64,000 bases of DNA from a virus. Shown here one piece after another: positions 1,635 to 52,672 of the stretch. How positions within the stretch are numbered: position 1 is the first letter of the stretch; every line of letters starts with the position of its first letter. The notes beneath the pieces were generated by a model. That model saw nothing but the letters and a program-made list of their open reading frames with translations, did not search any database and was not told where the DNA came from. The stretch spans positions 19,088 to 83,087 of the IMG/VR virus record IMGVR_UViG_3300019360_000007. One strand, given 5' to 3'. The position numbers and the translations under genes were made by a program.

Positions 1635-4060
1635 CAGATCGGCACCCCCAGCCGGTGACCCTGGCTGCCCATGCCGAAGAAGGACAGGGGAAGGTTGGTG
1701 AGGGGATCCCGGTCGGCGCTGCTCACGATGGCTCCGACGTTGCCGTTGCCTCCGAGCGTCGTCACGGTGCCCGACAGCTTGGTGAACCCGTTCGACTTGA
1801 GGGTGAGGGACGCCAGCGCCTGGACCGTCGTGGCGAGGGTCGTCTGGACCAGTAGCGTGCCTGTGGGGACGGTCACCCGGACCCCGGAGCTGGTGTCGAC
1901 GGTGATCTGGTTGACCCCCGCTCGCGCGGTGAACGTCCCCACGCCGGTGCGCCACGTGATGTTGCCGACGAGGACCGTCGTGGTGTGGTCGCCGAGGTCG
2001 ATCCTCTCGACACGGTCCCCGAAGAGCATCGTGTACTCGTCGGTCTTGCCTCCCGCATGGCCCGTCAGAGGCGTCCCGATGAACTTGGTCTCGCGCAGCG
2101 GAGCGTTGCTCGGGAGGAAGCTCTTGGGACCTGAGTAGAGGTTGGTCTCGCGGCCGAGGACAGACTTGTCCACAGTGTTCGACTGGAGGAGGAGCTTGTC
2201 CGTGAGTACATTAGTGCTCTGCTTCGATGTGATGAGCACCTCGTTCGTGTCCGTGATCTGGACCGCGTTGGCGCCTGAGATCTTGGCGATGCGGGCGGCC
2301 GTCACGTGGACGTTTCCGTTCGGGCTCTCGACCGCGACGGCGGGGAGCGTGCTCTCCTGGAGAGCGTCGGTCCCCGTCCTCGCGGAGAAGCTGCCCCGCG
2401 TGGTCGGGGCGTTCCCGCGGATCAGGACTGCCCCCGTCTCCGTGCCCACCGTCAGCGCGAAGTTGTCCGTGGGATCTCCGTTGCGGAGGTTGAAGACCAG
2501 GTTGGGCGCGTTGATGACGACGGGACCGTTCGCGTCGAGCCTCATGCCGCCGTTAAGGGCCATCTCCAGGGAGTCTCGGTCCTGGGGTCCGCTGAGGAAC
2601 GCCTTGAAGCGTCCATCCTTCGTGGCGCTGACGAATGCCGGGGGAACGCGCGACGGATCGTCGACGGGAGGGGTGATCTGGAACAGCGAGGCGGCGTGGT
2701 CTCCGATGGGAGACCCGATGCCCGATTCCAGGCGAGGATCGATGCGCGTGCCGTCGAAGATCCTCGGGGCGAGCGGAAGACCGTAGAGCAGCCGACCACG
2801 TGTCGTGTACGGATCGTTGCCCACAACGGATCCGAGGACCCAGAGGAGAAATGGGCCTCCAGCGGCCACGGACGTGTCCTGGACAGCGTCGGCGGGCAGA
2901 CGGTCGGCATCGAGTCCGTCCATCTGCTCCGTGACCGGCAATCTCCCATCCCACGTGTGGTCCATCTCGATCCTGTACTCGGTCAGCGTCTCCGACTCTC
3001 CCTGTTCCTCGGCGATGGCTGCATTGGCAGGGATGGACGTGTTCTCAGGATTCGGGTCGAGGGAGACGCGATACAGCGGCTTGCCGCCATACTCGGCATC
3101 TGACGTGACTCGACTCGGGTCCAGGGCGTATCCGTCGGTACCGATGTAGAAACCGCGAGAGAGGAACGAGTACGGGTCGATGTTGTCCTGCAGGAAGACC
3201 CCGCTGTCCGGGAACGGCAGGCTTGAGTCAGAGCGGAAGAAGACAGCGTGTGGGGTCAAGACGTTCTGTGCCGTCGAGCTCGCGCCCAGGGTGGCGGGAG
3301 GGAGAGGATTGCCGGACTCGTCCTGTTGGACACCCGCCGTCCAGTCGACCCCGTCGCTGAACATGCGCGCGGGGAGGAACGTGGCGTCTCGCTGGACCAT
3401 GCCGGCGTAGATCCGGGCGCCTCCGATGGCGTGGAACTGTTGGAGAGACCTGAACAGGATCGCCTGATCCTGGTCTCGGAGCCGCACCTCGTTCGCCCTG
3501 CGGCTGGCGATGAGGACGCCCTCGTCGAGGACCACGTCCGAGCCCTGACTCGACGACAGCACGACATTGCCTGGCAGCATGGGGACGGTCTTGAAGCGTC
3601 GACGACCGTAGATGCCCTCGAAGTGGGCCTGCTTCTTCGGATTCAGGTCGGTCTCGGATGGCAGGAAGCTCTGTACGGGAAGCCATTCGATGCCGGCCTC
3701 CACGCCGATGGGCAGCCATGCCAAGATGACCGGGAACTTGCTCTCCGCCGCAAGCCACCCGACGACGCAGACGTCACCTGGCTCCGGCAAGGCCCCCATG
3801 AAGTGGCGTGCTCCCGCGGCCGCGGCCGTCACCGGAATCGGGACCCACTCGAAGATGTCCGACTCGCCAGTCATAACTTGGAGAACGGCCTCCTGACGGG
3901 CATAGTCGACCCGCACCACCCGAGCGATCGAGAGGCCGTACGCGGCCGGCCCTGTGCTGAGGTCCTTCGACTTGACTCTATGCTCAGGAGAGACGTCGAA
4001 GGAGATCTGCGCGGACGGGACGGGACGGTCGACGTCCATCGTTGAAGGAGGTCTCGGCAT
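1634..4060 (-). CDS. Baseplate central spike, gp5/VgrG-like (OB-fold plus C-terminal beta-helix)
   Basis: N-terminal ARVVRVDY...WVPIP...LPEPGDVCVVGW fits the gp5/VgrG OB-fold pattern; Thr/Val/Gly-rich beta repeats at the C-terminus; directly after the hub gene. Confidence 0.75.
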   Translation of the reverse strand: MPRPPSTMDVDRPVPSAQISFDVSPEHRVKSKDLSTGPAAYGLSIARVVRVDYARQEAVLQVMTGESDIFEWVPIPVTAAAAGARHFMGALPEPGDVCVVGWLAAESKFPVILAWLPIGVEAGIEWLPVQSFLPSETDLNPKKQAHFEGIYGRRRFKTVPMLPGNVVLSSSQGSDVVLDEGVLIASRRANEVRLRDQDQAILFRSLQQFHAIGGARIYAGMVQRDATFLPARMFSDGVDWTAGVQQDESGNPLPPATLGASSTAQNVLTPHAVFFRSDSSLPFPDSGVFLQDNIDPYSFLSRGFYIGTDGYALDPSRVTSDAEYGGKPLYRVSLDPNPENTSIPANAAIAEEQGESETLTEYRIEMDHTWDGRLPVTEQMDGLDADRLPADAVQDTSVAAGGPFLLWVLGSVVGNDPYTTRGRLLYGLPLAPRIFDGTRIDPRLESGIGSPIGDHAASLFQITPPVDDPSRVPPAFVSATKDGRFKAFLSGPQDRDSLEMALNGGMRLDANGPVVINAPNLVFNLRNGDPTDNFALTVGTETGAVLIRGNAPTTRGSFSARTGTDALQESTLPAVAVESPNGNVHVTAARIAKISGANAVQITDTNEVLITSKQSTNVLTDKLLLQSNTVDKSVLGRETNLYSGPKSFLPSNAPLRETKFIGTPLTGHAGGKTDEYTMLFGDRVERIDLGDHTTTVLVGNITWRTGVGTFTARAGVNQITVDTSSGVRVTVPTGTLLVQTTLATTVQALASLTLKSNGFTKLSGTVTTLGGNGNVGAIVSSADRDPLTNLPLSFFGMGSQGHRLGVPI

Positions 4061-18558: not shown

Positions 18559-19203
18559 CTATAGCCTGGCAAGCGAGACCAGCCAGCGGCGGGCAATGCG
18601 CGCGGCCACGCCCTCCGCGGCTCGCGGAGAGTCCCCAGGACCGGCACCTTCGCCCCTCGCCGCCCTCGCCAGCGGGTTGCCTTCCACGAGCCTCCAAGCC
18701 TCCAGGGCTCGCCTCATGGCCTTCCGCTTCTCGGGGTCCTTCTCGGACCGCAGACGACGTGCCAGCTCGGTCGGCGGCACGTTAATGAAGGTGGCCAGCG
18801 AATCAGAAGATCCACCTCTCGCGAGCGACGCCTCTCGCGCCGCGATCTGCCGCCGCAGGCCGGGATGCAGGATGTTCCAGTGGGCGCGGATCCAGGCGGC
18901 GTCCGCCCAGACACAGGCGTCGTGCTCGCCGCACAGCGTCGGGGTCCATCCCACGTTCTCGCTCGTGGCCATGACCAGACAGTACGCTCCGTCGCGCGCC
19001 ATCTCCAGGACATCGTGCGGAGGCAGGTGTCCCGTCTCCTCCGCGAACTCCCTCTCCGCCGCCGCGAGCGGGGACTCGCCGTTCTCCAGGTGTCCTCCTG
19101 GAACGGACCAGAGCCCGACATCGTCGGCATCAGGCCCCGGTGCCCGTCGAACGAGGAGAACGACCTTCCCGTCAGTGAGCCAGAGCCCTGCGCGCTCGAT
19201 CAT
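18559..19203 (-). CDS. NUDIX hydrolase with C-terminal RIARRW tail
   Basis: Nudix box GGHLENGESPLAAAEREFAEETG. Confidence 0.9.
   Translation of the reverse strand: MIERAGLWLTDGKVVLLVRRAPGPDADDVGLWSVPGGHLENGESPLAAAEREFAEETGHLPPHDVLEMARDGAYCLVMATSENVGWTPTLCGEHDACVWADAAWIRAHWNILHPGLRRQIAAREASLARGGSSDSLATFINVPPTELARRLRSEKDPEKRKAMRRALEAWRLVEGNPLARAARGEGAGPGDSPRAAEGVAARIARRWLVSLARL
18561..18577 (-). promoter_or_regulatory. Putative phage late promoter (CTCGCT-N7-CTAT)
   Basis: One of seven matches to (C/A)TCGNT-N7-YKAT upstream of gene starts. Confidence 0.55.
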
Positions 19204-29400: not shown

Positions 29401-30887
29401 ATGCCGAACCCCCAGAACGCCTGGACCAAGTTCGGGTTGTTGGTCGGCAGGTCGATGCGGGTGTTCGAGACCGAGAGGAACACGTCCTGCCCGAGCGGCG
29501 TGTCGCGCCCGTTGCCCGTCGTCGGCTGCGCGGGGAGACGGAACTGCGTGCGGCTCTCCACGGCGGGAATCACCGTGTCGACGACGACGACCTCCGTCGG
29601 CGCCATGAACCAGCGGTTGTCGATCAGGAGGGCCGAGATCTGCGTGGGCCCGAAGGGCGGAGCCCCCGGAGTCGTGATCCCGGGCGAGATCAGGAAGGCG
29701 GCTCCCCAGACGATCAGGTCGTCCTTGAGAACGAAGTCCGCGCCCTCGATGAAGTCGTTGTTGCCGGGCACGATGCCGCAGCGGATGACCTCCGTGACGT
29801 TGATGTTCGCGAGGTAGTCGAACGTGTCCTGCCAGGTGTTGAAGAAGTATTGGATCGTGACGGTGTCGCCGACCGCCGGGGCGAAGGGCAGCGTCACGGC
29901 CCTGTTCTGGCCGTCGACCTCCGTCGGGATGACCTGGACCGAGTTGACGCGCACGGTCACCTTCGACGTGTCGGTCGTGGTGATGCCGCCGTTCGAGCCG
30001 TCGACGATAGGCCCGTTGAAGGTGAAGAACGTGCGGTTCCGACGCGTGTTCTGGTTCTGCGTGAAGCCGAGAACCGAGTTGGCCGTGCCGTTCCCGATCA
30101 GGAGACCGTTGTCGGCGACGAGGCGCACCGCCGTGAGGCCGAAGTTGTTGGTGTAGGTCGACGCCACCAGCGACGTGCCGGCCGCGGCCCCGTTGATCAG
30201 GGAGACCACCGTGGCGGCCGTGACGCTGCCGGTGGGGAACGTGGCGGTCACGACCTGCTGCGTAGTTGCCGACTGGTCGAAGTCCACCGTCACGAGGAAC
30301 TGGTTGTTGGAGGAGGTGAACTCGTAGGCGTTGCCGATGGCCCCGTCGAGGATCGCTCCTTGCGTGGACACCTGGTCGGACAGGTTGTCCGTGATCTGCG
30401 TGTCGGTCCGCTTGAAGAAGTAGGTGACCCGGACGTCGTCGCCGAAGTCGGGCGCCGTGCTGATCTCGATCACGCCGATGTCGGCGCGGGCCACGCTCAG
30501 GACCACGTCGGGGCGACCGTTGATCGTGACCAGGATCGAGCTGGGGTCCGTGGCCGTCTTGCCGGAGCCTGACCCGTCCGTGATCGGGTAGTTGCGGACC
30601 CGGATACGGCGGCGCTCACCGTTGAAGTCGCCGAGGATGACCTCGCCGGTCATCGTGATCTCGACGACCGCGCGACCGGTCTCGTCCTCCTGGGGGACCT
30701 GCTGGTCGACCGAGCTGCTCGATCCGCGGATGACCTCCAAGTCTCGCTGCTGGAGCAGCTCGTTGCCCGTCCCGATGAGCACCGGAATGCGGACGCCCGC
30801 GAGGACGCCGGAGACCGGCGAGTCGAACAGGGTTCGGGTATAGACGCCAGGTGGCGCGTAAATGGTCCCAGGAAAATCCGCGGGCAT
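23445..30887 (-). CDS. Giant tail sheath protein (2480 aa) with nested domain insertions
   Basis: N-terminal PPGVYT; C-terminal sheath domain (AAFLAFLNGA, RAERTGIIG, RVRQGLTT, YQPIFPLLYIVITFNL). Confidence 0.9.
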   Translation of the reverse strand: MPADFPGTIYAPPGVYTRTLFDSPVSGVLAGVRIPVLIGTGNELLQQRDLEVIRGSSSSVDQQVPQEDETGRAVVEITMTGEVILGDFNGERRRIRVRNYPITDGSGSGKTATDPSSILVTINGRPDVVLSVARADIGVIEISTAPDFGDDVRVTYFFKRTDTQITDNLSDQVSTQGAILDGAIGNAYEFTSSNNQFLVTVDFDQSATTQQVVTATFPTGSVTAATVVSLINGAAAGTSLVASTYTNNFGLTAVRLVADNGLLIGNGTANSVLGFTQNQNTRRNRTFFTFNGPIVDGSNGGITTTDTSKVTVRVNSVQVIPTEVDGQNRAVTLPFAPAVGDTVTIQYFFNTWQDTFDYLANINVTEVIRCGIVPGNNDFIEGADFVLKDDLIVWGAAFLISPGITTPGAPPFGPTQISALLIDNRWFMAPTEVVVVDTVIPAVESRTQFRLPAQPTTGNGRDTPLGQDVFLSVSNTRIDLPTNNPNLVQAFWGFGIEDALNRGAVSVTKVEGTIITLENPVPVGADVFATFWYNIMVDEEYTVQVETSGPSGIGTYFLFDKNGNPIYTPKFGSKGPALTGVTIEFPSGSELTPDVHFEGGTQGPVEETVTVQFADKDATIAKFTVPGAGPYFFVSGASDRARFTIDSSALAGGAAGIDLSAPHGIQGLGFYASLLGEEIQYTDDSGKTTYDILSGINDNVSFTVDGVVVTVTVPSQTAVNADAYVEAINAEAKLVANNPFLDGTTRFLGSTVITAGRYDKLVFNYTGVTNGPTGPVTATIAPGTYTSPTTMAAAVDSALQTAIGALPASFSGMDITCTANADGGMRFTFSATPTDLGTFATGTVTSALAVLGDTVTIDGVTLTGDLAQISGAQNFDTGQARATLMPMGVQPGDTFTIDAGGGPVLITAAGAQTPGGLNFNEGTRATGTITVAGPIPGDTVTVDGQVFLGVSGAPAANEFDVGTRASGTATLMGVQYGDTITIDTSVVGGGPVTLTASNTLTPGGLDFNVGTAATGTVGFSGVRVASAAPYPVVAADTLTLNGNVLTPVDVARTSGADDFFAGVRALSTLTVVTTALPSTGVLYGDTITIAGIPLTADNVTTPGGLNFDAGTQATATITVTASPSSATITIDTGAIAGGPYVLVPAGGPRTPGANDYDNTLGTTAAIAADIAAALNDPLNSFAAFSSAAVGPGPNDVTVTWTVPGMAANAVANLSSDGTVTISATFAGGVGDEITTATAIVAAILDPLNGLTSTVQAHNTGGTSATVDLRAITPGTGGNSISTVSTAPARLTFAGATLAGGLGTNTSARDDAIAAVNDVANSFAVDVTATSSGATTMVLTAVTPGAVGNTITLSTTAAGRFVLSGATLTGGVGDDISAATSLVAAIADAGNGLVGGVVATNAGGTSNVVTIMSFTPGTVGNGILLMESTGATRITLSAGTLLGGVGDNTTVATSLGASITASLPALVFTGVVAAVVTITAVTPGNAGNTIVLASSSATRLIRSGPTLAGGVGTNLTVASSIVAAINDLGNGLAAAVSADNAGGTSTTVTVWSDTPGVIGNTYTIASSTGVRLPVSGATFVGGATTVQVASSLVAAISDALNGLVGIVTADNSSGTSAVVDITAAVPGPTGNFITLASSTAIRLPVSGATLTGGSGLGGGVWEFLDGATVAEDFAIICGLSTDALPSQEQTKIVDGDIARRFTVSGTSGRLIYDRIIMRNRVLPGSGSLEPQSQVAQTSLITQGTNAVTETGLQPKAVGLAGIEATLRPASLFGEVGFKDGQVPAGTFADARDGQPRVRFYGSGGVNPQNNVWKVNIDGTAFTVVFKDSVGAAIPAAGQADVPLGPITFPNTVLKQIQDAAVGAGLPASVVAQEGAGIRLVSGIVTTNSAITLGNGNANNVLGFSEGATAARSTVDPELVASALMMHHSSTINGAILDYQMPDLTWFAAQALAGVERDSANNEFLFIESQANNIVGLGSSSNILFETATTADWLLTGTGLGVTSGQGAAGESGFQGFFVTSSDPVDGSGSANTSCFNSGVGQDGMISQSYRDTVTGLVFTILPRTGGADYPTGAGASFTFQVRKLVTTDANIPVNSISGLELIVANTEGSSIPQGDTAIVETFDRGGQEPAVGDSYFITYNYAKTAADFETMLFTSQRAVERNYGDTTPDNQVSLAAFLAFLNGAVVLGIKQVPKIPGSNQASTQSYSDALNDLRGSLPGGAVLDTITPMRGDDIDLFLQLSNHCDIQSSIRFRAERTGIIGVASGTQPTEVGGIAQQIENTRIRLVYPDIVTLTIQDALGNFKQFLVDGTYLAAAMAGNRASPNIDVATPWTRARIVGFDELARKLDAVEQNQVAVQGVTVMEQRGTVIRVRQGLTTDPTNILTKLPTVITIADEVQRAARRDLDRFIGIKFLPGVLSEIEGQLATTMKALKNAEIIAAFTGIQARTTNDPTVVEVEAFYQPIFPLLYIVITFNLRSNLGG
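25933..28373 (-). repeat. Seven N-half repeats followed by seven C-half repeats (nested domain array)
   Basis: 7x A(T/S)xT..GDT(V/I)TI..(N/D)FxxG, then 7x AxxxxAAI..PG..GN.I..SGATLxGG. Confidence 0.85.
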
Positions 30888-30888
30888 G

Positions 30889-31617
30889 TCAGCTTCCTTT
30901 CAGTGCGGCTCGGAAGGCGTCGAGGGAGATCCGCGTGAAGTGGAATCCGCGACACGGAGTTCCACGACGAATCGACTTGGCGACGGCATCGAAGGACAGG
31001 CCAAGGGCCTTGGCTGCTTCGGTCGCCGACGAAAAAACGGAACCGTCGGAGCGTCGGACGGGATTCGCGTTGCCTTCACGAATGCGACGCTTGTGTTCCT
31101 CGGTGAAGGCCTGTCCCGTATGGGCGGCAGACATCTTGGCGCGCGTCTCTTCCGATGGCACACGACCCGAATGGCTCGTGGACATTCGCGCCCTGCTCTC
31201 CGCGGAATGCCTTCGTCCCTTCCAGAAATCACCGCGCCCATTCTCCAAGTTGGCGAGCTGTCTCGCGGAGACCCCGCGAGCCTTGGCCGAGGTCGACATC
31301 CTCTTGCGCGTCTCCTCGCTCGCGACAACTCCGTCTCCGCCCTTGGTCAGGTTGTAACCATGCGCGCGCTCGGCCGAACGGTAGAGGGCGATATAGTGCC
31401 GCTCCCGTTCGTTGGCCTCGGCGAGGGTCGCGATTCCCTTCTCAAGCACTTCCCAGGCCATGGCGGGTCCGTACTTGCGAAGAGCCGCGGAGAAATGGCG
31501 ACTCCTCGTGCGAGCCAGGTAGAGGTGCTCGATCTTGCGCTGGTCGAGACTGCGCCGCGTGATCCCGACGTAGACCTTCCCGCTGGGCGACGTGACCCTA
31601 TAGACCACGTACGTCAC
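30889..31617 (-). CDS. GIY-YIG homing endonuclease with NUMOD3 repeats and NUMOD1-like HTH
   Basis: VVYRVTSPSGKVYVGIT, GYNLTKGG, (H/P)SEETRxxMS repeats, VFSSATEAAKALG; GTG 31617 after AAGGAG; its 3' end supplies the sheath RBS. Confidence 0.9.
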   Translation of the reverse strand: MTYVVYRVTSPSGKVYVGITRRSLDQRKIEHLYLARTRSRHFSAALRKYGPAMAWEVLEKGIATLAEANERERHYIALYRSAERAHGYNLTKGGDGVVASEETRKRMSTSAKARGVSARQLANLENGRGDFWKGRRHSAESRARMSTSHSGRVPSEETRAKMSAAHTGQAFTEEHKRRIREGNANPVRRSDGSVFSSATEAAKALGLSFDAVAKSIRRGTPCRGFHFTRISLDAFRAALKGS

Positions 31618-31869
31618 GTCCGCAGGACGCTCCTTCCCGCTCGCGCTCGACTCGGAGGAGGAGCACGTCGCGTCGGGCCACGGGGTCGCCGTGGCGAGTT
31701 CGGTGGAGGTCTGGAGCATCGAGGTCGGCTGTTCGCTCGGGATCACTCCCGTCTGTCGGGCGCACTTCTCCTGCGAGCGCGTGACGCCCTGGGTGCAGTC
31801 GCGGATCGCGCTCGGTAGAGCGCCTTGGTTCACGTCTCCGTGCCCGTCTCCGTCGGTCTGTCGGTTCAC

Positions 31870-32512: not shown

Positions 32513-33772
32513 CTAGCGCAGCATCTCGCCCGTCCCGTAGACCCCCGAGCGGCCCAGCTTGCCGACGAAGAACGGGTCCCACGGAGCCCGGAGACCGAGG
32601 GACGCCAGGGTGCGGAAGTTCGTCTGGATCTTCGCGATCTCCTCGTCGGAGAGCCCGGCGATCTGCTCGATGAACGGGGCGATGAGGGGGGCCTGGCCCT
32701 GCGGCACGGGCTCGCCCCCGGCCTGCTCCACCCCGCGGATCGTGATGCCGAGGGGGACGTGGATGCTCCAGTCGGTCTGGAGCTGCAGGCTGAAGCTGGC
32801 GTTGTAGAACCAGTCGTCAGCGACCTCGTCGTACTGCTCCTCCGTCTCGCCGCCCATGTTGACCGAGGCGATCTCGATCCCCATGCTGGAGAGCCGTGGT
32901 CGCGCGGTCGCCCAGAGGTACAGAGCGGTCTGGTCGAGGATCTCGCGCTGAGACAGAGGGTCGCGGGCGATGACGTCGAAGTCCAGGGTCAGGTCCCAGC
33001 GACCCCCGAACTCAAGTGCCGAGATGGTGCGCTTGTCCTGGACCACGACGGCCAAGCGGTCCCCGGCCGTGATGCGCCTCCCGAACGCAAGGACCGTCCC
33101 GGGAACGGGTTCCCGTAGAGCTCGGTCCTCGCGAACCTTCCACGGGCCCGTCGTCTCGCCCGGGCAACGGTAGTCGGCGGACAGGAACTCCTCGTCGGCC
33201 AGCTCGTCGATCAGGTCGATCTCGCCCGTGTCCGGGTCGGCCGTGTAGTTGGGGCCCTCGTAGAGCCGGAGGTTCCCGGGCATCCGGTAGAGGCGCAGCG
33301 TGCCGGAGAGGAACTTCCCCTTCTGGAGCTGGTACTGGGTGTCGTTGATCTTGAGGACCGTCTCGTCGATCACGTCGAGGAGCGGGTCCACGAAGAACTC
33401 CTGGTCGGTCGGCGAGCCATTCGCGTCGCAGAAGTCGAGGAAGTAGATGCCGGCCGCCGAGGGGAAGAACCCGCCGTTGTTCTGGATGGCGACGAAGTCC
33501 TCGCGCACCCACTCGACGGAGAGGTTCGGGTACCCCTCGACGTGGGCGAGGTACACGTAGCTCATCACGTGGCCCTGGAAGTTGTCGGCGGCGAGCGCGA
33601 CCTGGTTGCCGGCAGAGTTCTTGATCACGATGCCGAACTGCGGGCGCTCGCGGAAGCTGTACTTCCCCTGGATGTGCTGGACGATGTCCTTGTACTTCGG
33701 GTGGTACGACCAGTATCGGCGAAGCTCCTCGATGAACTTCCGATGCACCTGAGTTGTGAGGAAATAGTACAT
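32513..33772 (-). CDS. Putative tail terminator/completion protein
   Basis: Position between neck genes and sheath; WDLTLDFDVIARD..WFYNASFSLQLQTDW is beta-sandwich-like; AGGAG upstream. Confidence 0.5.
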   Translation of the reverse strand: MYYFLTTQVHRKFIEELRRYWSYHPKYKDIVQHIQGKYSFRERPQFGIVIKNSAGNQVALAADNFQGHVMSYVYLAHVEGYPNLSVEWVREDFVAIQNNGGFFPSAAGIYFLDFCDANGSPTDQEFFVDPLLDVIDETVLKINDTQYQLQKGKFLSGTLRLYRMPGNLRLYEGPNYTADPDTGEIDLIDELADEEFLSADYRCPGETTGPWKVREDRALREPVPGTVLAFGRRITAGDRLAVVVQDKRTISALEFGGRWDLTLDFDVIARDPLSQREILDQTALYLWATARPRLSSMGIEIASVNMGGETEEQYDEVADDWFYNASFSLQLQTDWSIHVPLGITIRGVEQAGGEPVPQGQAPLIAPFIEQIAGLSDEEIAKIQTNFRTLASLGLRAPWDPFFVGKLGRSGVYGTGEMLR

Positions 33773-37122: not shown

Positions 37123-38649
37123 TCAGGTGGAAATATTTTCCCATACCGGCGTGCGGCCGCGCTGCTCTCTCTCGTCCGGGATGTTGTCCTTCTCGGTCTG
37201 CATCGGCGTCTGCTGGTAGTTCGCTCCCACGGGATACGGCCCGAGCGGTGGGTACTCGGTCTGCCAGCCTCCGCCCTGCATGATGGCCGGGCGCCCCCTG
37301 CACTCGGGCCAGCACAGCTCCGTCGTGTCGAACAGGGGGATCTTGTAGCGGATGTCGTTCTCCTCCAGGTAGGCGATCTGGAAGTGCTGCTGCATGATGT
37401 TCCCGCGCGCGGACGGCTTGCGCACGGGGCCGATGCTGTAGCGCTCGTTCGTCTGCTTGACGATGAAGTCGCGCTGCGTGAGCAGGGGCGACGGCCCTGT
37501 CCACACGTCCTGAACGTGTTCGAGCCGCCTTCCCGTCGGGGTCTGCCGCACGGCCCGGTCGTTGTCGTCGGGCGAGAGGATCATGTCGTACGGTCCCTCG
37601 TACCCGCCGACGAAGGACGTCCCGAAGCATACCTCGCATCTGGAGTCGGGCTGCTGGTTGAACTCTATCGTGCGCGGGTCCCTGCCGCAGAAGCACTGCT
37701 CGCCGCTCTGCTTGCGGATGAACACCTTGACGCGCTCGCCGCCCTGCTCGAGGATCCAGTTGTTGCGCCGGATGGCCTCGCGCCAGATGTAGTCCATCCG
37801 CTCGACCGCCCTGTAGGTGACCGGCTCGGCGAAGTCTAGCGGCGTTTCCCTGAACCCCGTGGGCGACGATCCGTCCCTCGACACCGTCGTGACCCTGTAC
37901 CATGCCTTGTGGTCGAGCTCGGTCTTCACGGCGTTGCGGTTGTAGTAGTAGGTGATCGAGACGGCCGTCTGCGGACCCTGCGGGATCGTGGGCTCGATCC
38001 AGCGCTCGGTCGCGAAGTCGTAGCCTCTCGTGTTGATGAGCGTGACCTCGCCCGTGGGGCCGAACACCGCGTGGACGGGGACGATCTTGTTGTCGATGAT
38101 CAGCTGGACGTCCATGGGAACGTCCGCCGCGATGGCCTGGCCCGACTTCTTCACGATGGGCCAGCTCTTCGTGCGGAAGACCCACGGCCTCTCGTTCGCC
38201 GACTCACCCCGGTTGATCCACGCGGTGTCCCAGTCGACGACCTCGTTCTGGACCAGTACGTTGTCGGTGTAGTCCCGGTAGAAGGTGCCTCCAACCGGCG
38301 TGGCGTTGAGGCGATGGTACGGACCTCGCTCGCTCGTGTCGCTGCGGTAGACGTTGACGCCGACGACGGCGAACTTGCTGTTCTTCGCCAGGATGGAAGG
38401 CTCGTCCCATCGCAGATCGAGGGTCCCCGTGAACAGGGGGCTCACGACCTCGACGTTGGTGGGCGCAACGGGACACTCGTTCGGGCCGACCTCCCACCCG
38501 ATGCAGCTGGGGCCGAAGGGGCCGGGACTGGGGCCGGGATCAGGGCACGGCGGCGTCGGACCGGGCGGCGTGGGCGTGGGGCACGAGACCGGCTCGAGCG
38601 GGTTCGGCTTCTGGATCCACGGTTCCTGGCCCTGGTTGACGCACGTCAT
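37123..38649 (-). CDS. Putative head-closure/neck protein with FN3-like N-domain
   Basis: APTNVEV..LRW..NVYRS (FN3-like); GGERVKVFIRK..CFC..CEVCFGTSFVGGY. Confidence 0.65.
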   Translation of the reverse strand: MTCVNQGQEPWIQKPNPLEPVSCPTPTPPGPTPPCPDPGPSPGPFGPSCIGWEVGPNECPVAPTNVEVVSPLFTGTLDLRWDEPSILAKNSKFAVVGVNVYRSDTSERGPYHRLNATPVGGTFYRDYTDNVLVQNEVVDWDTAWINRGESANERPWVFRTKSWPIVKKSGQAIAADVPMDVQLIIDNKIVPVHAVFGPTGEVTLINTRGYDFATERWIEPTIPQGPQTAVSITYYYNRNAVKTELDHKAWYRVTTVSRDGSSPTGFRETPLDFAEPVTYRAVERMDYIWREAIRRNNWILEQGGERVKVFIRKQSGEQCFCGRDPRTIEFNQQPDSRCEVCFGTSFVGGYEGPYDMILSPDDNDRAVRQTPTGRRLEHVQDVWTGPSPLLTQRDFIVKQTNERYSIGPVRKPSARGNIMQQHFQIAYLEENDIRYKIPLFDTTELCWPECRGRPAIMQGGGWQTEYPPLGPYPVGANYQQTPMQTEKDNIPDEREQRGRTPVWENIST

Positions 38650-48203: not shown

Positions 48204-50522
48204 CTACCCCACCTGGACCTCGCCAAGGAAGGCCGCCAACCTGGTCCGCACGGCCTCGCGATCCCCATTCACCTCGGACTCCCAAATGACCAGGCACTCA
48301 AGCCCAACCTCGGCGTACGCGGCCACCAGCTCGGACTCGTGCTCAAAAGGCGCCTTCCCCGTGAACATCCGCGAGTGCCAAAAGTCCCCGAACGCCTCGA
48401 CGACCTTGGTGACTCCCTTCCTCGGTTTCTTCGGATCGGGTCCGGGCAAGATGAAGTCCGGGTTCTTGAAGTGACCGAGCTTCGGAAGCCAACGCCAGAA
48501 TTTCCGGTCACCCGTGTACCGCAGCCGGGACTCCAGCGAGGCCACCCGACGCTCAAGCCCGTTCGGACCGAACTTCGTGGACTCGCCCATCTGATAGAGG
48601 AAGTAGGACGCGTAGTCCCTGTCTTGGAGCGGATGCGTGATCCCGTAACGCTCAAGGAGGTCCTCTTCGGAAGCAGCAGGAGGATCGGGATCTGAGAACA
48701 TCTTACCAACCTTGGAGAGGCAGGTGCGGATGGTCTTCTCTTTGATTTGCGGGGCTTCTTGGACAGTCGGAACGCCATACCTCTCCAAGCAGGTGGCAAC
48801 CACCTTCGCCATGATCTCCGGGCTCTGAAGCGGGCTGTCAACGCCATAGCGTTCTTGGCAGGTCTCTCTGCGCCTTTCCAGGAACTCGGCGAGCTGGAGC
48901 GGGTGCGTGACCCCGTACTTGGCCACGAATCGCTCGACCTGCTGTTCCCAGAACCCCTCGACCTGCGCGTAGTAGTCCACGCCGTACTTGGCCTGCATCC
49001 CCTCGATCACGCGACGCTTGCCTTCCTCAGAAGCGAAGAAGTGCGAGCCATAGTTCGCCTCCATCGTTTCGAGTTGCTTGCGCCTCACGTCAGGAACCAT
49101 CGCCGTCCACGAGACACCGTAACATTCAAGGTTGGTCTGGCGCTGCCTCTCCACGACCTCGGGCGAACACGACGGAGCAGGACCCCCGTAACGCTCCTCG
49201 TTCGTTGCCACGATCTTCTCCCGAATCTCGGGGGCAGCCAGAGACTCCTCGTGCCCGTAACGCTCAAGATTCGTCGCCCTGGTGCGAGCCCGAATCTCAG
49301 GCACCTGTTGCGGGTTCTCGGCCCCGTAACGCTCGCGCATGGTGTCTCGAATCTTCTCCTGCACCTCGGGCTGCGCAAACGGGTTGTCCTCGCCGCGGAG
49401 TACAGGTCGTTTCCCTTCCAAGGACGCCTGCACATCGTCGAACAGATTCGACTCTCGGGCAAACACACTTTCGGCTCCGTAACGCTCAAGGTTCGTGGCC
49501 GATGCCTTGGCCCGAACCTCGTCCGACTGCATCGGGTTCTCCACGCCGAACCTGTCCAGATTCGTTCGCAACCTTCTGGCTCTGGCAACCGCGTCTGCGT
49601 CCCTCGTCTGCCAGACCACACAGATTCCCTGATGCCGCTTCATCTGCGTCAAGCTCGTGCTCTCATGCCCACACAAGCACGGCTCCGGGCCTTGCGTATC
49701 AGGCCATCCCTCGCAGATGGCCTTGTGACGACTCGTGACCTTCGTGAATGCCTCGTCGCAGTGAGGGCAGATCTCGTAGGCACCTGACGCGATCAGATCT
49801 TCACGATGCAACCGTTCTCGTTCGGCACGCTTCCTCGCCAACTCCAAGTACCACGCCGGAGAGTGGAGGAAAGAGGATGCCCCGTGGCGCGCAGCGTTTG
49901 TCTGCTCCATGCGTCTCCTGATTCTTGGCGCCTGTTGCGGATTCTCGACCCCGTGACGCTCAAGATTCGTCGCACGGATCTTGTCCTTGATCCCCTCGGA
50001 CGCGAACACGTTCACTACTCCGTATCGCTCAAGGTTCGTCTCAGCACGACGTTGCTTCACCCCCTCAGCCTGGAGGTGATGCTCGACTCCGTACTTCTCT
50101 CGAGAAGCCTGGCGTGTCCTCTCCTTGACTTCCTCGCTCTGACCAATGTTGTCCACTCCATACTTGGCCCGCGTGGTCTCCACACGCTGGGCCTCGGAGC
50201 CCTTGGCCACCACCGGAGCCCCAGGGAACTTGGCCTCGTAGTGGCTCCGAGTCAGGCCGTTATGGAGGCGCTTGAGGTGGTCCGCTAGACGCTTCACGCG
50301 GACCTCTGTGCCTCCCGCGTGGCAGATCCGGCATGACACGTAGTCCTGGCCCTCGACCTTCCCAGGAGCCCACAGGCCGCGCTGGAAGTGCCGGTCGAAG
50401 TCGAACTGCGAGGGGGGAATCCCGATCACTGTATCCCACGCAGAACAACCGTTCGTGTGCTTCGGAATAGCTTTCGGTGACGAGAGGATCTTCTGGCAAG
50501 CGGGGCAACAGAGTTCGGGCAT
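48204..50522 (-). CDS. Homing endonuclease: Zn fingers, about 17 NLERYG-type repeats, C-terminal Vsr-like nuclease
   Basis: TNLERYGVEN-type repeats; NPDFIL..VVEAFGDFWH..LVIWESE; start ATG 50522 (or 50534). Confidence 0.8.
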   Translation of the reverse strand: MPELCCPACQKILSSPKAIPKHTNGCSAWDTVIGIPPSQFDFDRHFQRGLWAPGKVEGQDYVSCRICHAGGTEVRVKRLADHLKRLHNGLTRSHYEAKFPGAPVVAKGSEAQRVETTRAKYGVDNIGQSEEVKERTRQASREKYGVEHHLQAEGVKQRRAETNLERYGVVNVFASEGIKDKIRATNLERHGVENPQQAPRIRRRMEQTNAARHGASSFLHSPAWYLELARKRAERERLHREDLIASGAYEICPHCDEAFTKVTSRHKAICEGWPDTQGPEPCLCGHESTSLTQMKRHQGICVVWQTRDADAVARARRLRTNLDRFGVENPMQSDEVRAKASATNLERYGAESVFARESNLFDDVQASLEGKRPVLRGEDNPFAQPEVQEKIRDTMRERYGAENPQQVPEIRARTRATNLERYGHEESLAAPEIREKIVATNEERYGGPAPSCSPEVVERQRQTNLECYGVSWTAMVPDVRRKQLETMEANYGSHFFASEEGKRRVIEGMQAKYGVDYYAQVEGFWEQQVERFVAKYGVTHPLQLAEFLERRRETCQERYGVDSPLQSPEIMAKVVATCLERYGVPTVQEAPQIKEKTIRTCLSKVGKMFSDPDPPAASEEDLLERYGITHPLQDRDYASYFLYQMGESTKFGPNGLERRVASLESRLRYTGDRKFWRWLPKLGHFKNPDFILPGPDPKKPRKGVTKVVEAFGDFWHSRMFTGKAPFEHESELVAAYAEVGLECLVIWESEVNGDREAVRTRLAAFLGEVQVG

Positions 50523-50523
50523 C

Positions 50524-50540
50524 CGTGCTAGCATAGCACG
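50524..50540 (-). promoter_or_regulatory. Hairpin containing an extended -10 (TGcTATGCT) just upstream of the endonuclease ATG
   Basis: CGTGCTA-TGC-TAGCACG-G-ATG. Confidence 0.55.
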
Positions 50541-50581
50541 ACAGAAAACTGAAGGAAGTCACTGCGATGTGAGAAACCTCA

Positions 50582-51475
50582 CTAAACGAAACTCCTAGGT
50601 GAAAGAATCCCCCGGCCGACCGCGGGTCCAAAGGAGGACCTCACCCCGAAACCAAACTTCGGCTGCTGCAGGCCACGGATGAACTTGACGGTCCTCGACT
50701 TCGCCTCGGTCGCCTTGTCGAGCTGGCCCTCGGCGTTGCTCTTGAGAGACTCGTACTTGCTCGACTTCTCCAAGCTCAGCGAGATCCCGCCGATGGAGTA
50801 GTCGAACTCGTCGTGTACCCAGTTGACGCTGAGGGCGAACAGAGCATGCACCGCGGCTGCCCACAGGATGAACGTCCTCCACACAGGCTTTCGGGCGCAC
50901 AGGTCGTTGAGCGTCCTGATGCCCTCCGTCTCGGGGGGGAAGGCGTTGAACCAGTCCAGTCCCATCTGCAGATAGCAGAGCAGCTCGTAGTCCTCCCAGA
51001 TGTACCCGAACACGCGGTTGTACTTCTTAACCACGCCCTCCTGCTCGGGCGGGCGGAAGTGGTAGTTGCGATCCGGAGAGTTGCTGACGACGGCCTTGGA
51101 ACGATGGAGCACGAAGTTGTGCCAGTCCTCCGCCGTCAGGTCGTACATGTGACGCCGGTCTTCGATCCGCCGCACGACGAGAATACAGGGGCTTCCCACG
51201 GTTTCCTTGAAGACACCGAGGACGGCCTGTCCAGGGTGTAGCTTCTCCATCTCAACTTTCTCCGTGGGCGACACGAAGACGCGATGGCCTCCCGTGAGGA
51301 CCATGGACCCATGCTCGGTGGTTGCCTCCCAGATCGACTCCGAGATCACCTCGGCCCGGTGGGCGGCGAGAATCCGTTTCCAGCGGAGAGCCCCCTCGGG
51401 AGAGACCGAACGCACGCGGAGTTCTCCAGCTTGAAACGCGGAGTGCAGCTTGGCTTGGGTCTCAGCAGAGAGCAT
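50582..51475 (-). CDS. Split neck/head-tail adaptor gene, C-part: IntC (132 aa) plus C-extein
   Basis: RBS GGGAGG; intein block B LTGGH, block F MYDLT..HNF, block G VVSN/S at 51080. Confidence 0.85.
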   Translation of the reverse strand: MLSAETQAKLHSAFQAGELRVRSVSPEGALRWKRILAAHRAEVISESIWEATTEHGSMVLTGGHRVFVSPTEKVEMEKLHPGQAVLGVFKETVGSPCILVVRRIEDRRHMYDLTAEDWHNFVLHRSKAVVSNSPDRNYHFRPPEQEGVVKKYNRVFGYIWEDYELLCYLQMGLDWFNAFPPETEGIRTLNDLCARKPVWRTFILWAAAVHALFALSVNWVHDEFDYSIGGISLSLEKSSKYESLKSNAEGQLDKATEAKSRTVKFIRGLQQPKFGFGVRSSFGPAVGRGILSPRSFV

Positions 51476-51605
51476 CCCGTAGCCCTCCCCTCTCGGTCCA
51501 GACGTGAAAGGACCAACGGGGGCGCCCCTTCTTGGAGAACACCTCCCAAGAGATGTCGTGCTTGCGCAGGAAAGGCACGAGCGCGCAGTGGGGGTCACTG
51601 AACAT
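51462..51605 (-). CDS. 47-aa ORF between the intein halves (possible endonuclease remnant)
   Basis: MFSDPHCALVPFLRKHDISWEVFSKKGRPRWSFHVWTERGGLRDALC; GGAGG upstream; overlaps both halves. Confidence 0.4.
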   Translation of the reverse strand: MFSDPHCALVPFLRKHDISWEVFSKKGRPRWSFHVWTERGGLRDALC

Positions 51606-52104
51606 CCTTCAGAGCCTCCCACAAGTCGTCCATACGTACAATCATCCGTTCGCCGTCCACGTCCAATTCAATGGTTTCCTCGGCTCCAACACAGTTGTCC
51701 CTCAACATCACGCGGAGCTTGTCCACGAGCCCGGCTTCGCAGCTCGAGAGCAGGGGCTGTCCGTCCGTACACGCCGCCGGGTCGCTGACCCCGAACTCCT
51801 GCACGACTTCCTGGAACTCGTCCATGAGCGTCTTGCGGAACCTCCACCTGATCCGGTACTCGCCCGCGGAGGCGCCGGGAGGCACGAGGAGCGCCGCGTA
51901 GTACTCGCCGATGGACGGATTGACGGGCACGCGATCCATGGGTCCGATGAGGACCTCGACGCCCGGAGGACCCATGCTCTGGTCCACGAAGAAGATGGAG
52001 TAGAAGATCTCAGCGGCGTTCATCGGAACGCCGAGCTCGTCGACCAGGAAGATCTTGAGGTCGTTGCGGCCTAACTCGGTCCCAGGGGGGAAGCAGACGG
52101 CCAT
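51595..52104 (-). CDS. Split neck/head-tail adaptor gene, N-part: N-extein plus IntN (32 aa)
   Basis: ...LRVMLRDN/CVGAEETIEL..VRMDDLW (intein block A), then a stop. Confidence 0.85.
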   Translation of the reverse strand: MAVCFPPGTELGRNDLKIFLVDELGVPMNAAEIFYSIFFVDQSMGPPGVEVLIGPMDRVPVNPSIGEYYAALLVPPGASAGEYRIRWRFRKTLMDEFQEVVQEFGVSDPAACTDGQPLLSSCEAGLVDKLRVMLRDNCVGAEETIELDVDGERMIVRMDDLWEALKDVQ

Positions 52105-52108
52105 CGGC

Positions 52109-52672
52109 TCACAGCCTCACGTCTCCGAGGTCGAAGTCCTGGTCGTCGGCGAGGGGAACCTCCTCGTCCGCGGCGGGTGCACCGAGGTTGCGTATGTCGT
52201 AGGGTGGATCATCGTCCACTTCCTCGGACTCCACTTCCTCGTCGGCGTTGATCACCTCGACCTCGACTCCGGCGTCGTTCTTGACCTTGACCCCCACCTC
52301 GCTCTTGAGCTTCACGGCATCGTCGTCCGCACCGCCGGTGAGCGTCTCCCTGGTCCTCCGTCCCCACTCGTCCAGGACGGCCAAGAGATCGTTGAGATAC
52401 TGGGAGTCGCCCTGGTCGATGGACTTGTAGCTGATCAGGCGCGTGTAGACCTGGTTCTTCGCGCGGAACGCCTGCTCGATGGCAGCCTTCGTGGAGTCGC
52501 ACAGCTCGTCCACGGTCGAGGGACTCGAGACGCCCTCCTCGATCTGCGGAAGGATCTCTCGCTCCACGGCCTCCCTCGCGTACGAGGACACGAGCAGGGC
52601 CTCCTTCGCCCGCTCTTCCGCGACGTGGCGCTGGACGATGTCGTTCCCCGATATCAGCTCGTCCAGACGCAA
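52109..52672 (-). CDS. Acidic-tailed hypothetical protein
   Basis: TTG start after GGGGAG. Confidence 0.7.
   Translation of the reverse strand: MRLDELISGNDIVQRHVAEERAKEALLVSSYAREAVEREILPQIEEGVSSPSTVDELCDSTKAAIEQAFRAKNQVYTRLISYKSIDQGDSQYLNDLLAVLDEWGRRTRETLTGGADDDAVKLKSEVGVKVKNDAGVEVEVINADEEVESEEVDDDPPYDIRNLGAPAADEEVPLADDQDFDLGDVRL

Follow-up and report, generated by a model that had tools for sequence, protein, structure and literature searches.

How does a phage come to encode what is probably a single virion protein in two separate genes, each of which carries a piece of an intein at its broken end? This question is raised by two adjacent genes at positions 50582 to 52104 of a 64,000-nucleotide stretch of viral DNA (positions 19,088 to 83,087 of IMG/VR virus record IMGVR_UViG_3300019360_000007), which we call the window and whose coordinates are used throughout. 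We consider it very likely that the two genes contain a naturally, atypically split class-1 intein, situated in a late structural gene of a large uncultured phage, and that this intein trans-splices. To judge from its layout and that of its relatives, the locus would be a 'fractured gene' from which the homing endonuclease has been lost.

All genes of the split locus lie on the minus strand. Gene 1 (51595-52104) encodes 169 residues, of which the first 137 belong to the host protein (the N-extein, 51694..52104) and end in ...KLRVMLRDN. Directly after LRDN comes the N-terminal intein part (IntN, 51595..51693), whose sequence is CVGAEETIELDVDGERMIVRMDDLWEALKDVQ; its 32 codons run from Cys1 to ...DLWEALKDVQ and are closed by a TGA stop codon (51595-51597). 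IntN contains block A and the DLWE helix, which is N2-like; its net charge is -7. Between this stop and the ATG of gene 2 there is a spacer of 119 nucleotides (51476..51594), on the gene strand of which promoter-like and terminator-like sites were sought and none was found. Gene 2 (50582-51475, 297 residues) starts with an ATG at 51475, preceded at a spacing of 7 nucleotides by a Shine-Dalgarno-like GGGGAGGG (51483..51490), and opens with the C-terminal intein part (IntC, 51080..51475). In the 132 codons of IntC, LTGGH at residues 60-64 is block B (T61, H64), MYDLTAEDWHNF is block F (D112, H119) and VVSN is block G (S131, N132). The C-extein (50582..51079, 165 codons and a stop) then begins with Ser+1 and continues as PDRNYHF.... 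The frame of gene 2 is open upstream to 51667, that is, to 24 codons ahead of the gene-1 stop. An earlier interpretation made from the letters of this stretch (hereafter the sequence-only reading) had described a gene 1 ending in LRDN, a Cys-first peptide running to DVQ and a stop, a gene 2 with its own ribosome-binding site (RBS) and blocks B, F and G, a block G without a penultimate His and a C-part frame open through the gap; all of these were reproduced here, Ser131 being the residue at the position of the His.

The evidence that these two pieces belong to an intein comes mainly from comparison across the family. Gene 2 has 1379 database relatives at an expectation value (E) of 1e-3 or below, and a profile of 77 IntC-first proteins matched the solved inteins Mja KlbA (2jmz, E 4.1e-10), Pho RadA (4e2u, E 7.7e-7) and Spl DnaX (7cfv, E 2.3e-5). 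Given 1379 relatives and a profile match at E 4e-10, the intein call is far beyond chance. When the profile was aligned with Npu DnaE (4kl5), query residues 19-132 fell on chain residues 31-140, from which it follows that IntC is short of only about the first 30 residues of the Hint fold, the part that a 32-residue IntN supplies. The features found are those of a class-1 intein (a block A nucleophile, a TxxH block B, the Asp and His of block F, a terminal Asn and Ser or Cys at +1) and, with regard to the break, those of an atypical split, namely separate open reading frames (ORFs), with block B absent from a short IntN and blocks B, F and G all found in a long IntC. The catalytic positions are strongly conserved: T61, H64, D112 and N132 are invariant in the 77 IntC sequences and H119 is present in 75, position +1 is taken by Ser 63 times and by Cys 14 times, and Met1 of IntC is found in 70. 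Likewise, all 21 IntN peptides examined start with Cys1 and are acidic, with net charges between -4 and -8, and the charge of the first 48 IntC residues is zero or above in 19 of 21. An acidic IntN with a basic IntC start is the usual pattern for split-intein partners. Contiguous relatives span the split point with linkers of 4-10 residues, which fits a split point in a loop. The central proposal of the sequence-only reading, an atypically split intein with a 32-residue IntN and a 132-residue IntC, is thus real and conserved, as indicated by the profile match, the invariant residues and the 22 split loci described below.

Some observations weigh on the other side. Taken as a single sequence, the window's IntC reached only E 0.004 against Pfam PF14890 (Intein_splicing), under the curated cut-off, and 15.4 bits against TIGR01443, for which the cut-off is 15.6; the strong intein match is that of the family profile and not of single sequences. 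In addition, the penultimate residue is Ser and not His. A penultimate His in block G is common, not universal, among inteins, and in the family this residue is Ser in 58, His in 8, Gly in 7 and Lys in 4 of the 77 sequences, so that the absence of His is a family trait. The 17 matches of the IntC profile to PDB sequences at E<=0.1 included zero solved atypically split inteins, the best match being the contiguous Mja KlbA, and for this reason we regard the family as separate by sequence.

If the two genes encode one interrupted protein, uninterrupted versions of it might be expected elsewhere. The search for such homologues suggested by the sequence-only reading was run, and proteins of about 302 residues (e.g., P0059 and P0080) were found that read ...LRDN-NPDRNYHF... 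without interruption at the same point. We collected 84 loci from contigs of viruses and metagenomes. After setting aside 18 exact duplicates and 4 loci whose state could not be decided, we had 62 distinct loci: 39 have no intein at this site, one (L041) has a contiguous intein of 158 residues and the other 22 are split, with a stop after an IntN of 30-41 residues and a separate IntC gene. These 62 are non-identical loci rather than independent lineages, and near-duplicates (L045/L046; L034, L036, L048 and L057) are among them. Among 120 homologues listed, 92 start with IntC and 22 are without an intein, a listing biased to intein-bearing forms because the query contained IntC; the script that made this count misclassed P0098, which by sequence is contiguous at this site, as are L041, P0008, P0020 and P0106. 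P0098 has a linker of about 35 residues that keeps a ...KEEG.PRWL tail like that of the separate IntN of L009 (L009:2576-3106), and it is possibly a split intein whose halves were joined again once the endonuclease had gone.

From these alignments, exact excision of the intein would restore a host protein colinear with its uninterrupted homologues. The N-extein is 74% identical over 137 residues to the intein-free N-half of L002, the C-extein shows 93-94% identity to the corresponding half of homologues without an intein, and the insertion point is flanked by the invariant host residues R135, D136, P139, N142 and Y143. Both intein parts are under purifying selection. Relative to the closest locus, L001 (82-86% identity), the ratio of nonsynonymous to synonymous substitution rates (dN/dS) is 0.051 for IntN (30 codons) and 0.111 for IntC, compared with 0.097 for the N-extein and 0.062 for the C-extein.

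In one rival explanation the intein no longer splices, either because the locus is a decaying pseudogene or because the two host pieces function without being ligated, as a non-covalent complex that the intein parts keep together. The decay of the homing endonuclease does imply an element past its mobile phase, and the absence of the penultimate His could be taken in the same sense. We nevertheless think this explanation improbable because: (i) all catalytic residues are present and are invariant in the family; (ii) dN/dS of IntN and IntC (0.05-0.11) is as low as that of the exteins; (iii) each of the 77 alleles with an intein has Ser or Cys at +1, where those without one almost always have Asn, a pattern expected only if the nucleophile is in use; (iv) the exteins remain 74% and 93% identical to uninterrupted homologues and (v) the connector gene, as we call the host gene for reasons given below, is present as a single copy in the 83-kb contig.

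The next issue is what separates the two halves. In the split relatives the halves are 0.55-0.93 kb apart, except in L043, and a free-standing endonuclease gene occupies the interval in 19 of the 22 loci. In 18 of these it is an intact gene for a TnsA-like protein of about 300 residues, with a helix-turn-helix-like region at the N-terminus and a TnsA-like PD-(D/E)xK nuclease domain at the C-terminus; the L008 protein scored 34.7 bits against Pfam PF08722 (cut-off 26.5), and the TnsA-like endonuclease matched NF033179 at E 4.5e-10. The remaining one, at L001, is an HNH endonuclease gene (PF01844, E 1.6e-9) at 3175-4011, and no trace of a TnsA-like gene was detectable in that slot. Since the closest relative of the window has this unrelated HNH gene, the slot has been held by at least two endonuclease families. 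Decayed forms also exist: L012, L036 and L030 have frameshifted or internally deleted copies, and in L043 only the last 30 or so endonuclease codons are left, in a spacer of 81 nucleotides. In 14 of the 16 relatives shown, the endonuclease codons TGGAC.GA.AAGGA (WTEK) lie a few nucleotides 5' of the IntC start, and to us they look like the RBS of the IntC gene in those relatives.

In the window there is no free-standing endonuclease gene between the halves, just a 47-residue ORF in the third frame (51462..51605, minus strand) that overlaps the end of gene 1 by 11 nucleotides and the start of gene 2 by 14. The intact endonuclease gene of the relatives likewise overlaps both halves. The ORF retains about 30 N-terminal and about 9 C-terminal endonuclease codons. 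Its first 30 or so residues matched the N-terminus of the intact endonuclease in BLASTP (E 5e-10 for L013 and 2e-6 for L008), and a hidden Markov model (HMM) of five endonuclease sequences hit the ORF at E 9.4e-7, the sole match in the window and in the 83-kb contig. Residues 31-39 (WSFHVWTER) resemble the endonuclease C-terminal motif W-D-F-x-V-W-T-E-K, the window keeps GTCTGGACCGAGAGGGGAGGG where the relatives have the WTEK-codon motif before the IntC start, and the Shine-Dalgarno-like site of gene 2 is embedded in these retained last codons (..VWTER..). Furthermore, when the spacer is read in the third frame its G+C at third codon positions (GC3) is 0.85, compared with 0.59 for the frame of gene 2 and 0.51 for that of gene 1, while the genes have values of 0.84 and 0.82. 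Given the remnant matches, the position of the motif and the third-frame GC3, we interpret the spacer as a collapsed endonuclease gene and not as an intein linker or random DNA.

Two points count against this interpretation. The C-terminal 9 residues alone are not significant (BLASTP E 0.019; HMM domain E 3.7-33), and we have accepted them as a probable remnant on their position and the common DNA motif. In addition, among the contigs of the one public run found to contain part of the stretch, a cave-metagenome DNA run (word share 0.18), there was none over 51469-51753, so the spacer sequence is that of this assembly alone; when contigs from the run were aligned to 50500-52200 they covered 50895-51443 at low depth and neither supported nor contradicted the spacer. 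The search for runs found none of RNA. At the nucleotide level, blastn-short of the spacer against the relatives found nothing beyond matches of 14-17 nucleotides, and the remnant is seen in the protein and in the motif ahead of the start.

It could also be argued that the 47-residue ORF is not a remnant at all, having either arisen by chance or being a small gene with a function of its own, for example in coupling the translation of the two halves. Stop-free runs are common at 62-65% G+C, and a start codon, the overlap with both genes and a gene-like GC3 would all suit a small expressed gene. This explanation seems to us highly unlikely, considering that the N-terminal 30 residues match the N-terminus of the endonuclease at E 5e-10, that the only HMM match in the 83-kb contig falls in the expected place, strand and register, and that the relatives display a decay series from intact genes through frameshifted or internally deleted copies to a remnant only. 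The ORF may have a residual coupling role, which is compatible with its origin as a remnant.

Weakest of all is the proposition that the intein is truly contiguous, with the split being an assembly or sequencing indel or the frames being joined by a programmed -1 ribosomal frameshift. In its favour, the frame of gene 2 is free of stops from 51667 on, some relatives are contiguous (L041, P0008, P0020 and P0106) and the spacer is without read coverage. Against it, (i) the spacer codes in the third frame, which matches the relatives' endonuclease and argues against a frameshifted contiguous intein, (ii) the overlap has no X_XXY_YYZ heptamer, the sole one in gene 1 being at 52090 where the gene-2 frame is closed, (iii) a frameshift would give a Ser/Cys/Arg/Gly-rich linker of 49 residues, compared with 4-10 in the contiguous relatives, (iv) 22 distinct loci are split in this way, the IntC gene having a start codon to itself (Met in 70 of 77), and (v) L043 independently has an 81-nucleotide spacer with a stop and without an endonuclease. 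The assembly-error and frameshift outcomes that the sequence-only reading had named as potentially fatal to it are accordingly contradicted by the third-frame coding, the lack of a slippery heptamer and the 22 split loci. Read-through of the TGA was considered separately and rejected: the gene-1 frame stays open beyond the stop, out of frame with IntC.

A plausible scenario for expression of the split gene is then as follows. The two genes are probably co-transcribed and translated separately, which would yield an N-precursor of 169 residues (137 of host protein and the acidic 32-residue IntN) and a C-precursor of 297 residues (the 132-residue IntC and 165 of host protein). We infer that the halves associate, IntN docking onto IntC and completing the Hint fold, and that splicing proceeds by the chemistry the residues predict: a thioester would form at Cys1, the N-extein would be passed to Ser+1, Asn132 would cyclise and an O-N shift would create a normal peptide bond in ...LRDN-SPDRNY.... 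The product would be a protein of 302 residues, colinear with the intein-free homologues. As for the history of the spacer, an in-frame internal deletion may have removed the TnsA-like nuclease gene and left the 47-residue ORF, the last codons of which would still provide the RBS of the IntC gene.

What is the host protein? A neck or connector role is our best reading, held with moderate confidence. In tblastn the intein-free homologue P0059 matched gp319 of the 308-kb Tunturiibacter phage Tunturi_5 (E 5e-23, 26.8% identity, 94% coverage), which bears the annotation 'head-tail connector protein', itself unverified; matches were also obtained to gp165 of Bacillus phage G (E 6e-9) and to a 485-kb uncultured phage. 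PHROG 17327 (connector) was matched weakly by 13 of 37 family members, at best with E 0.0031. The order of genes is that of Tunturi_5, namely connector, 'minor tail', 'tail terminator' and sheath, with homologues of the last three in the window at 37123-38649 (E 3e-35 to Tunturi_5), 32513-33772 (E 4e-10) and 23445-30887 (a sheath protein of 2480 residues, E 5e-21), respectively. Less favourable to this assignment are that an extein profile had no match to PDB sequences at E<=10 and that the connector function, as we propose it, depends on annotation and gene order. Searches of the extein against Pfam, NCBIfam and PHROGs gave nothing or weak matches only, in the Atlas it fell only in unnamed viral protein clusters, and few neighbouring genes were named by PHROGs. 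In a set of 1.84 billion proteins the extein profile matched 725 cluster representatives (E<=1e-3), many of them pieces that end or begin at intein sites. The view of the sequence-only reading that a virion neck gene is fractured here is therefore upheld in part: the gene order shared with Tunturi_5 speaks for it, and the annotated homologue is only 27% identical, the PHROG match is weak and the assignment is not fold-based.

In several relatives a weaker second N-extein match (25-33% identity) occurs upstream of the connector gene (L007:1650-1952, L008:1209-1379, L010:2183-2479, L013:1699-2037, L014:575-883, L015:3237-3542 and L020:3290-3592, the last a tandem fusion), indicating that the N-terminal domain has a paralogue in a neighbouring gene.

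Other atypically split inteins include the TerL-type and VidaL-type, to which the present one is likened by name and not by sequence comparison. Inteins of this kind have been recently identified and are few, according to the excerpted text of Pasch 2023 (PMC10189870). As far as that text describes them, PolB16 OarG resembles our intein in having a short block-A N-fragment and a long C-fragment with blocks B, F and G and in its phage or metagenome origin, and differs from it in the length of IntN (15 residues, versus 32 here) and in extein and insertion site (PMC10189870). Our intein also differs from the characterised atypically split inteins in its nucleophiles, Cys1 and Ser+1, and has in common with them a fragment short enough for peptide synthesis, which at 28-32 residues is feasible.

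Precedent for the organization of the locus comes from Dassa 2009 (PMC2677866), which in the parts available defines fractured genes by two features, a split intein and, between its halves, a free-standing endonuclease gene. The hosts it describes there are enzymes of DNA synthesis and repair, a terminase and one protein of unknown function; one terminase is split unusually, with a C-part of 122 residues lacking only motif N1, and the gp41-7 locus has lost its endonuclease gene and is modelled as step III (PMC2677866). The relatives of our locus are like these fractured genes in that a free-standing endonuclease gene lies between, and overlaps, the halves, and the window would represent the endonuclease-lost stage (step III, as for gp41-7) with the remnant still readable. 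Compared with what those parts report, our locus differs in three ways: (i) the host is a probable virion connector, although the host of unknown function in Dassa 2009 may be related to it; (ii) the endonuclease is a TnsA-like PD-(D/E)xK protein, or HNH in L001, instead of GIY-YIG or Vsr-like and (iii) endonuclease loss is documented by a sequence remnant in the spacer. The locus is thus a clear example of an already known arrangement, and its particular value is the documented endonuclease-lost state.

Inteins in virion or assembly genes are not without precedent. Kelley 2016 (PMC5050341) describes, in its excerpted text, contiguous inteins in mycobacteriophage portal genes, and all its phage intein hosts bind nucleic acid. 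Those portal inteins and ours alike occupy a conserved site in a tailed-phage protein of the virion or its assembly; unlike them, as so described, ours is split and its host is connector-like, without a known nucleic-acid role (PMC5050341). A conventionally described split intein in PolB, with an HNH gene, occurs in a jumbo phage. Full-text searches of a literature collection with few subscription papers, covering main texts, did not turn up any account of a split intein in the neck or connector gene of a phage.

The connector gene of some relatives is broken at further sites. It is in three pieces at L013:2634-6282 and also in L012, L044, L045/L046 and L065, as well as in proteins P0217, P0225, P0236 and P0254, with a second, paralogous atypically split intein at ...DEF|S...AHN|SYSIGG. 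The IntC of this second intein is 24-28% identical to that of the first, and its IntN of about 30 residues starts with Ser; middle pieces of 256 residues carry the IntC of the first intein and the IntN of the second, and in L013 the halves of the second intein have their own Vsr/DUF559-like endonuclease gene between them. A further split site, six residues downstream of the site in the window, is found in P0216 and P0255 (...PDRNY|S...). Contiguous inteins also occur, one near the C-terminus of the connector protein at L019:2-1339 (...GIGLS|...TSN|S...) and a contiguous version of the second-site intein at L024:3590-4996. At L023:3650-5100 the order is permuted, the IntC of the second intein and the C-terminal extein piece lying upstream of the N-terminal two-thirds and IntN.

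Two homing-endonuclease-like genes lie elsewhere in the window. Directly downstream of gene 2 there is a homing-endonuclease-like gene of 776 residues (48204-50534, minus strand) that matches PHROG 3339 (E 7e-55) and has five DUF7487 repeats and a Vsr-like C-terminus (...EAFGDFWH...); the connector gene has a downstream neighbour of the same type in L011 and L017. At the end of gene 2 (50585-50608), six of the last eight sense codons end in A or T, despite a GC3 of 0.82 for the gene. Another homing-endonuclease-like gene (30889-31869, minus strand), with a match to PHROG 314 (E 2.9e-29) and GIY-YIG-type matches, adjoins the 2480-residue sheath gene.

Atypically split inteins with a peptide-sized IntN are few and are wanted for semisynthesis and labelling, as the excerpts of Pasch 2023 (PMC10189870) have it. 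Natural variants number in the hundreds in the present family, their core IntN being about 28-32 residues long and their chemistry Cys1/Ser+1, and the paralogous second split intein in the same protein provides candidates for orthogonal three-segment ligation. With regard to evolution, the sequences of the window and its relatives document, for a single insertion site, a series that runs from alleles without an intein through a contiguous intein to split ones whose endonuclease is intact, decayed or reduced to a remnant, and this series is directly relevant to the gene-breaking model that Dassa 2009 proposed, as set out in the available parts of that paper (PMC2677866). With this family, the hosts of split inteins come to include a probable structural protein of the virion besides nucleic-acid enzymes.

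Finally, the gene has stayed in two pieces after loss of the endonuclease, with neither re-fusion nor loss of the intein, and both intein parts are under strong purifying selection, which raises the idea that the split intein is perhaps past its selfish phase and is now a fixed step in making the neck. We regard this as unlikely on present evidence. Were it correct, trans-splicing could be a checkpoint that delays the connector until both halves have accumulated, and the wider family, with paralogous, atypically split inteins at two or more sites of one small protein and with genes in three pieces, would amount to a naturally occurring collection of short-IntN inteins that are orthogonal to one another.

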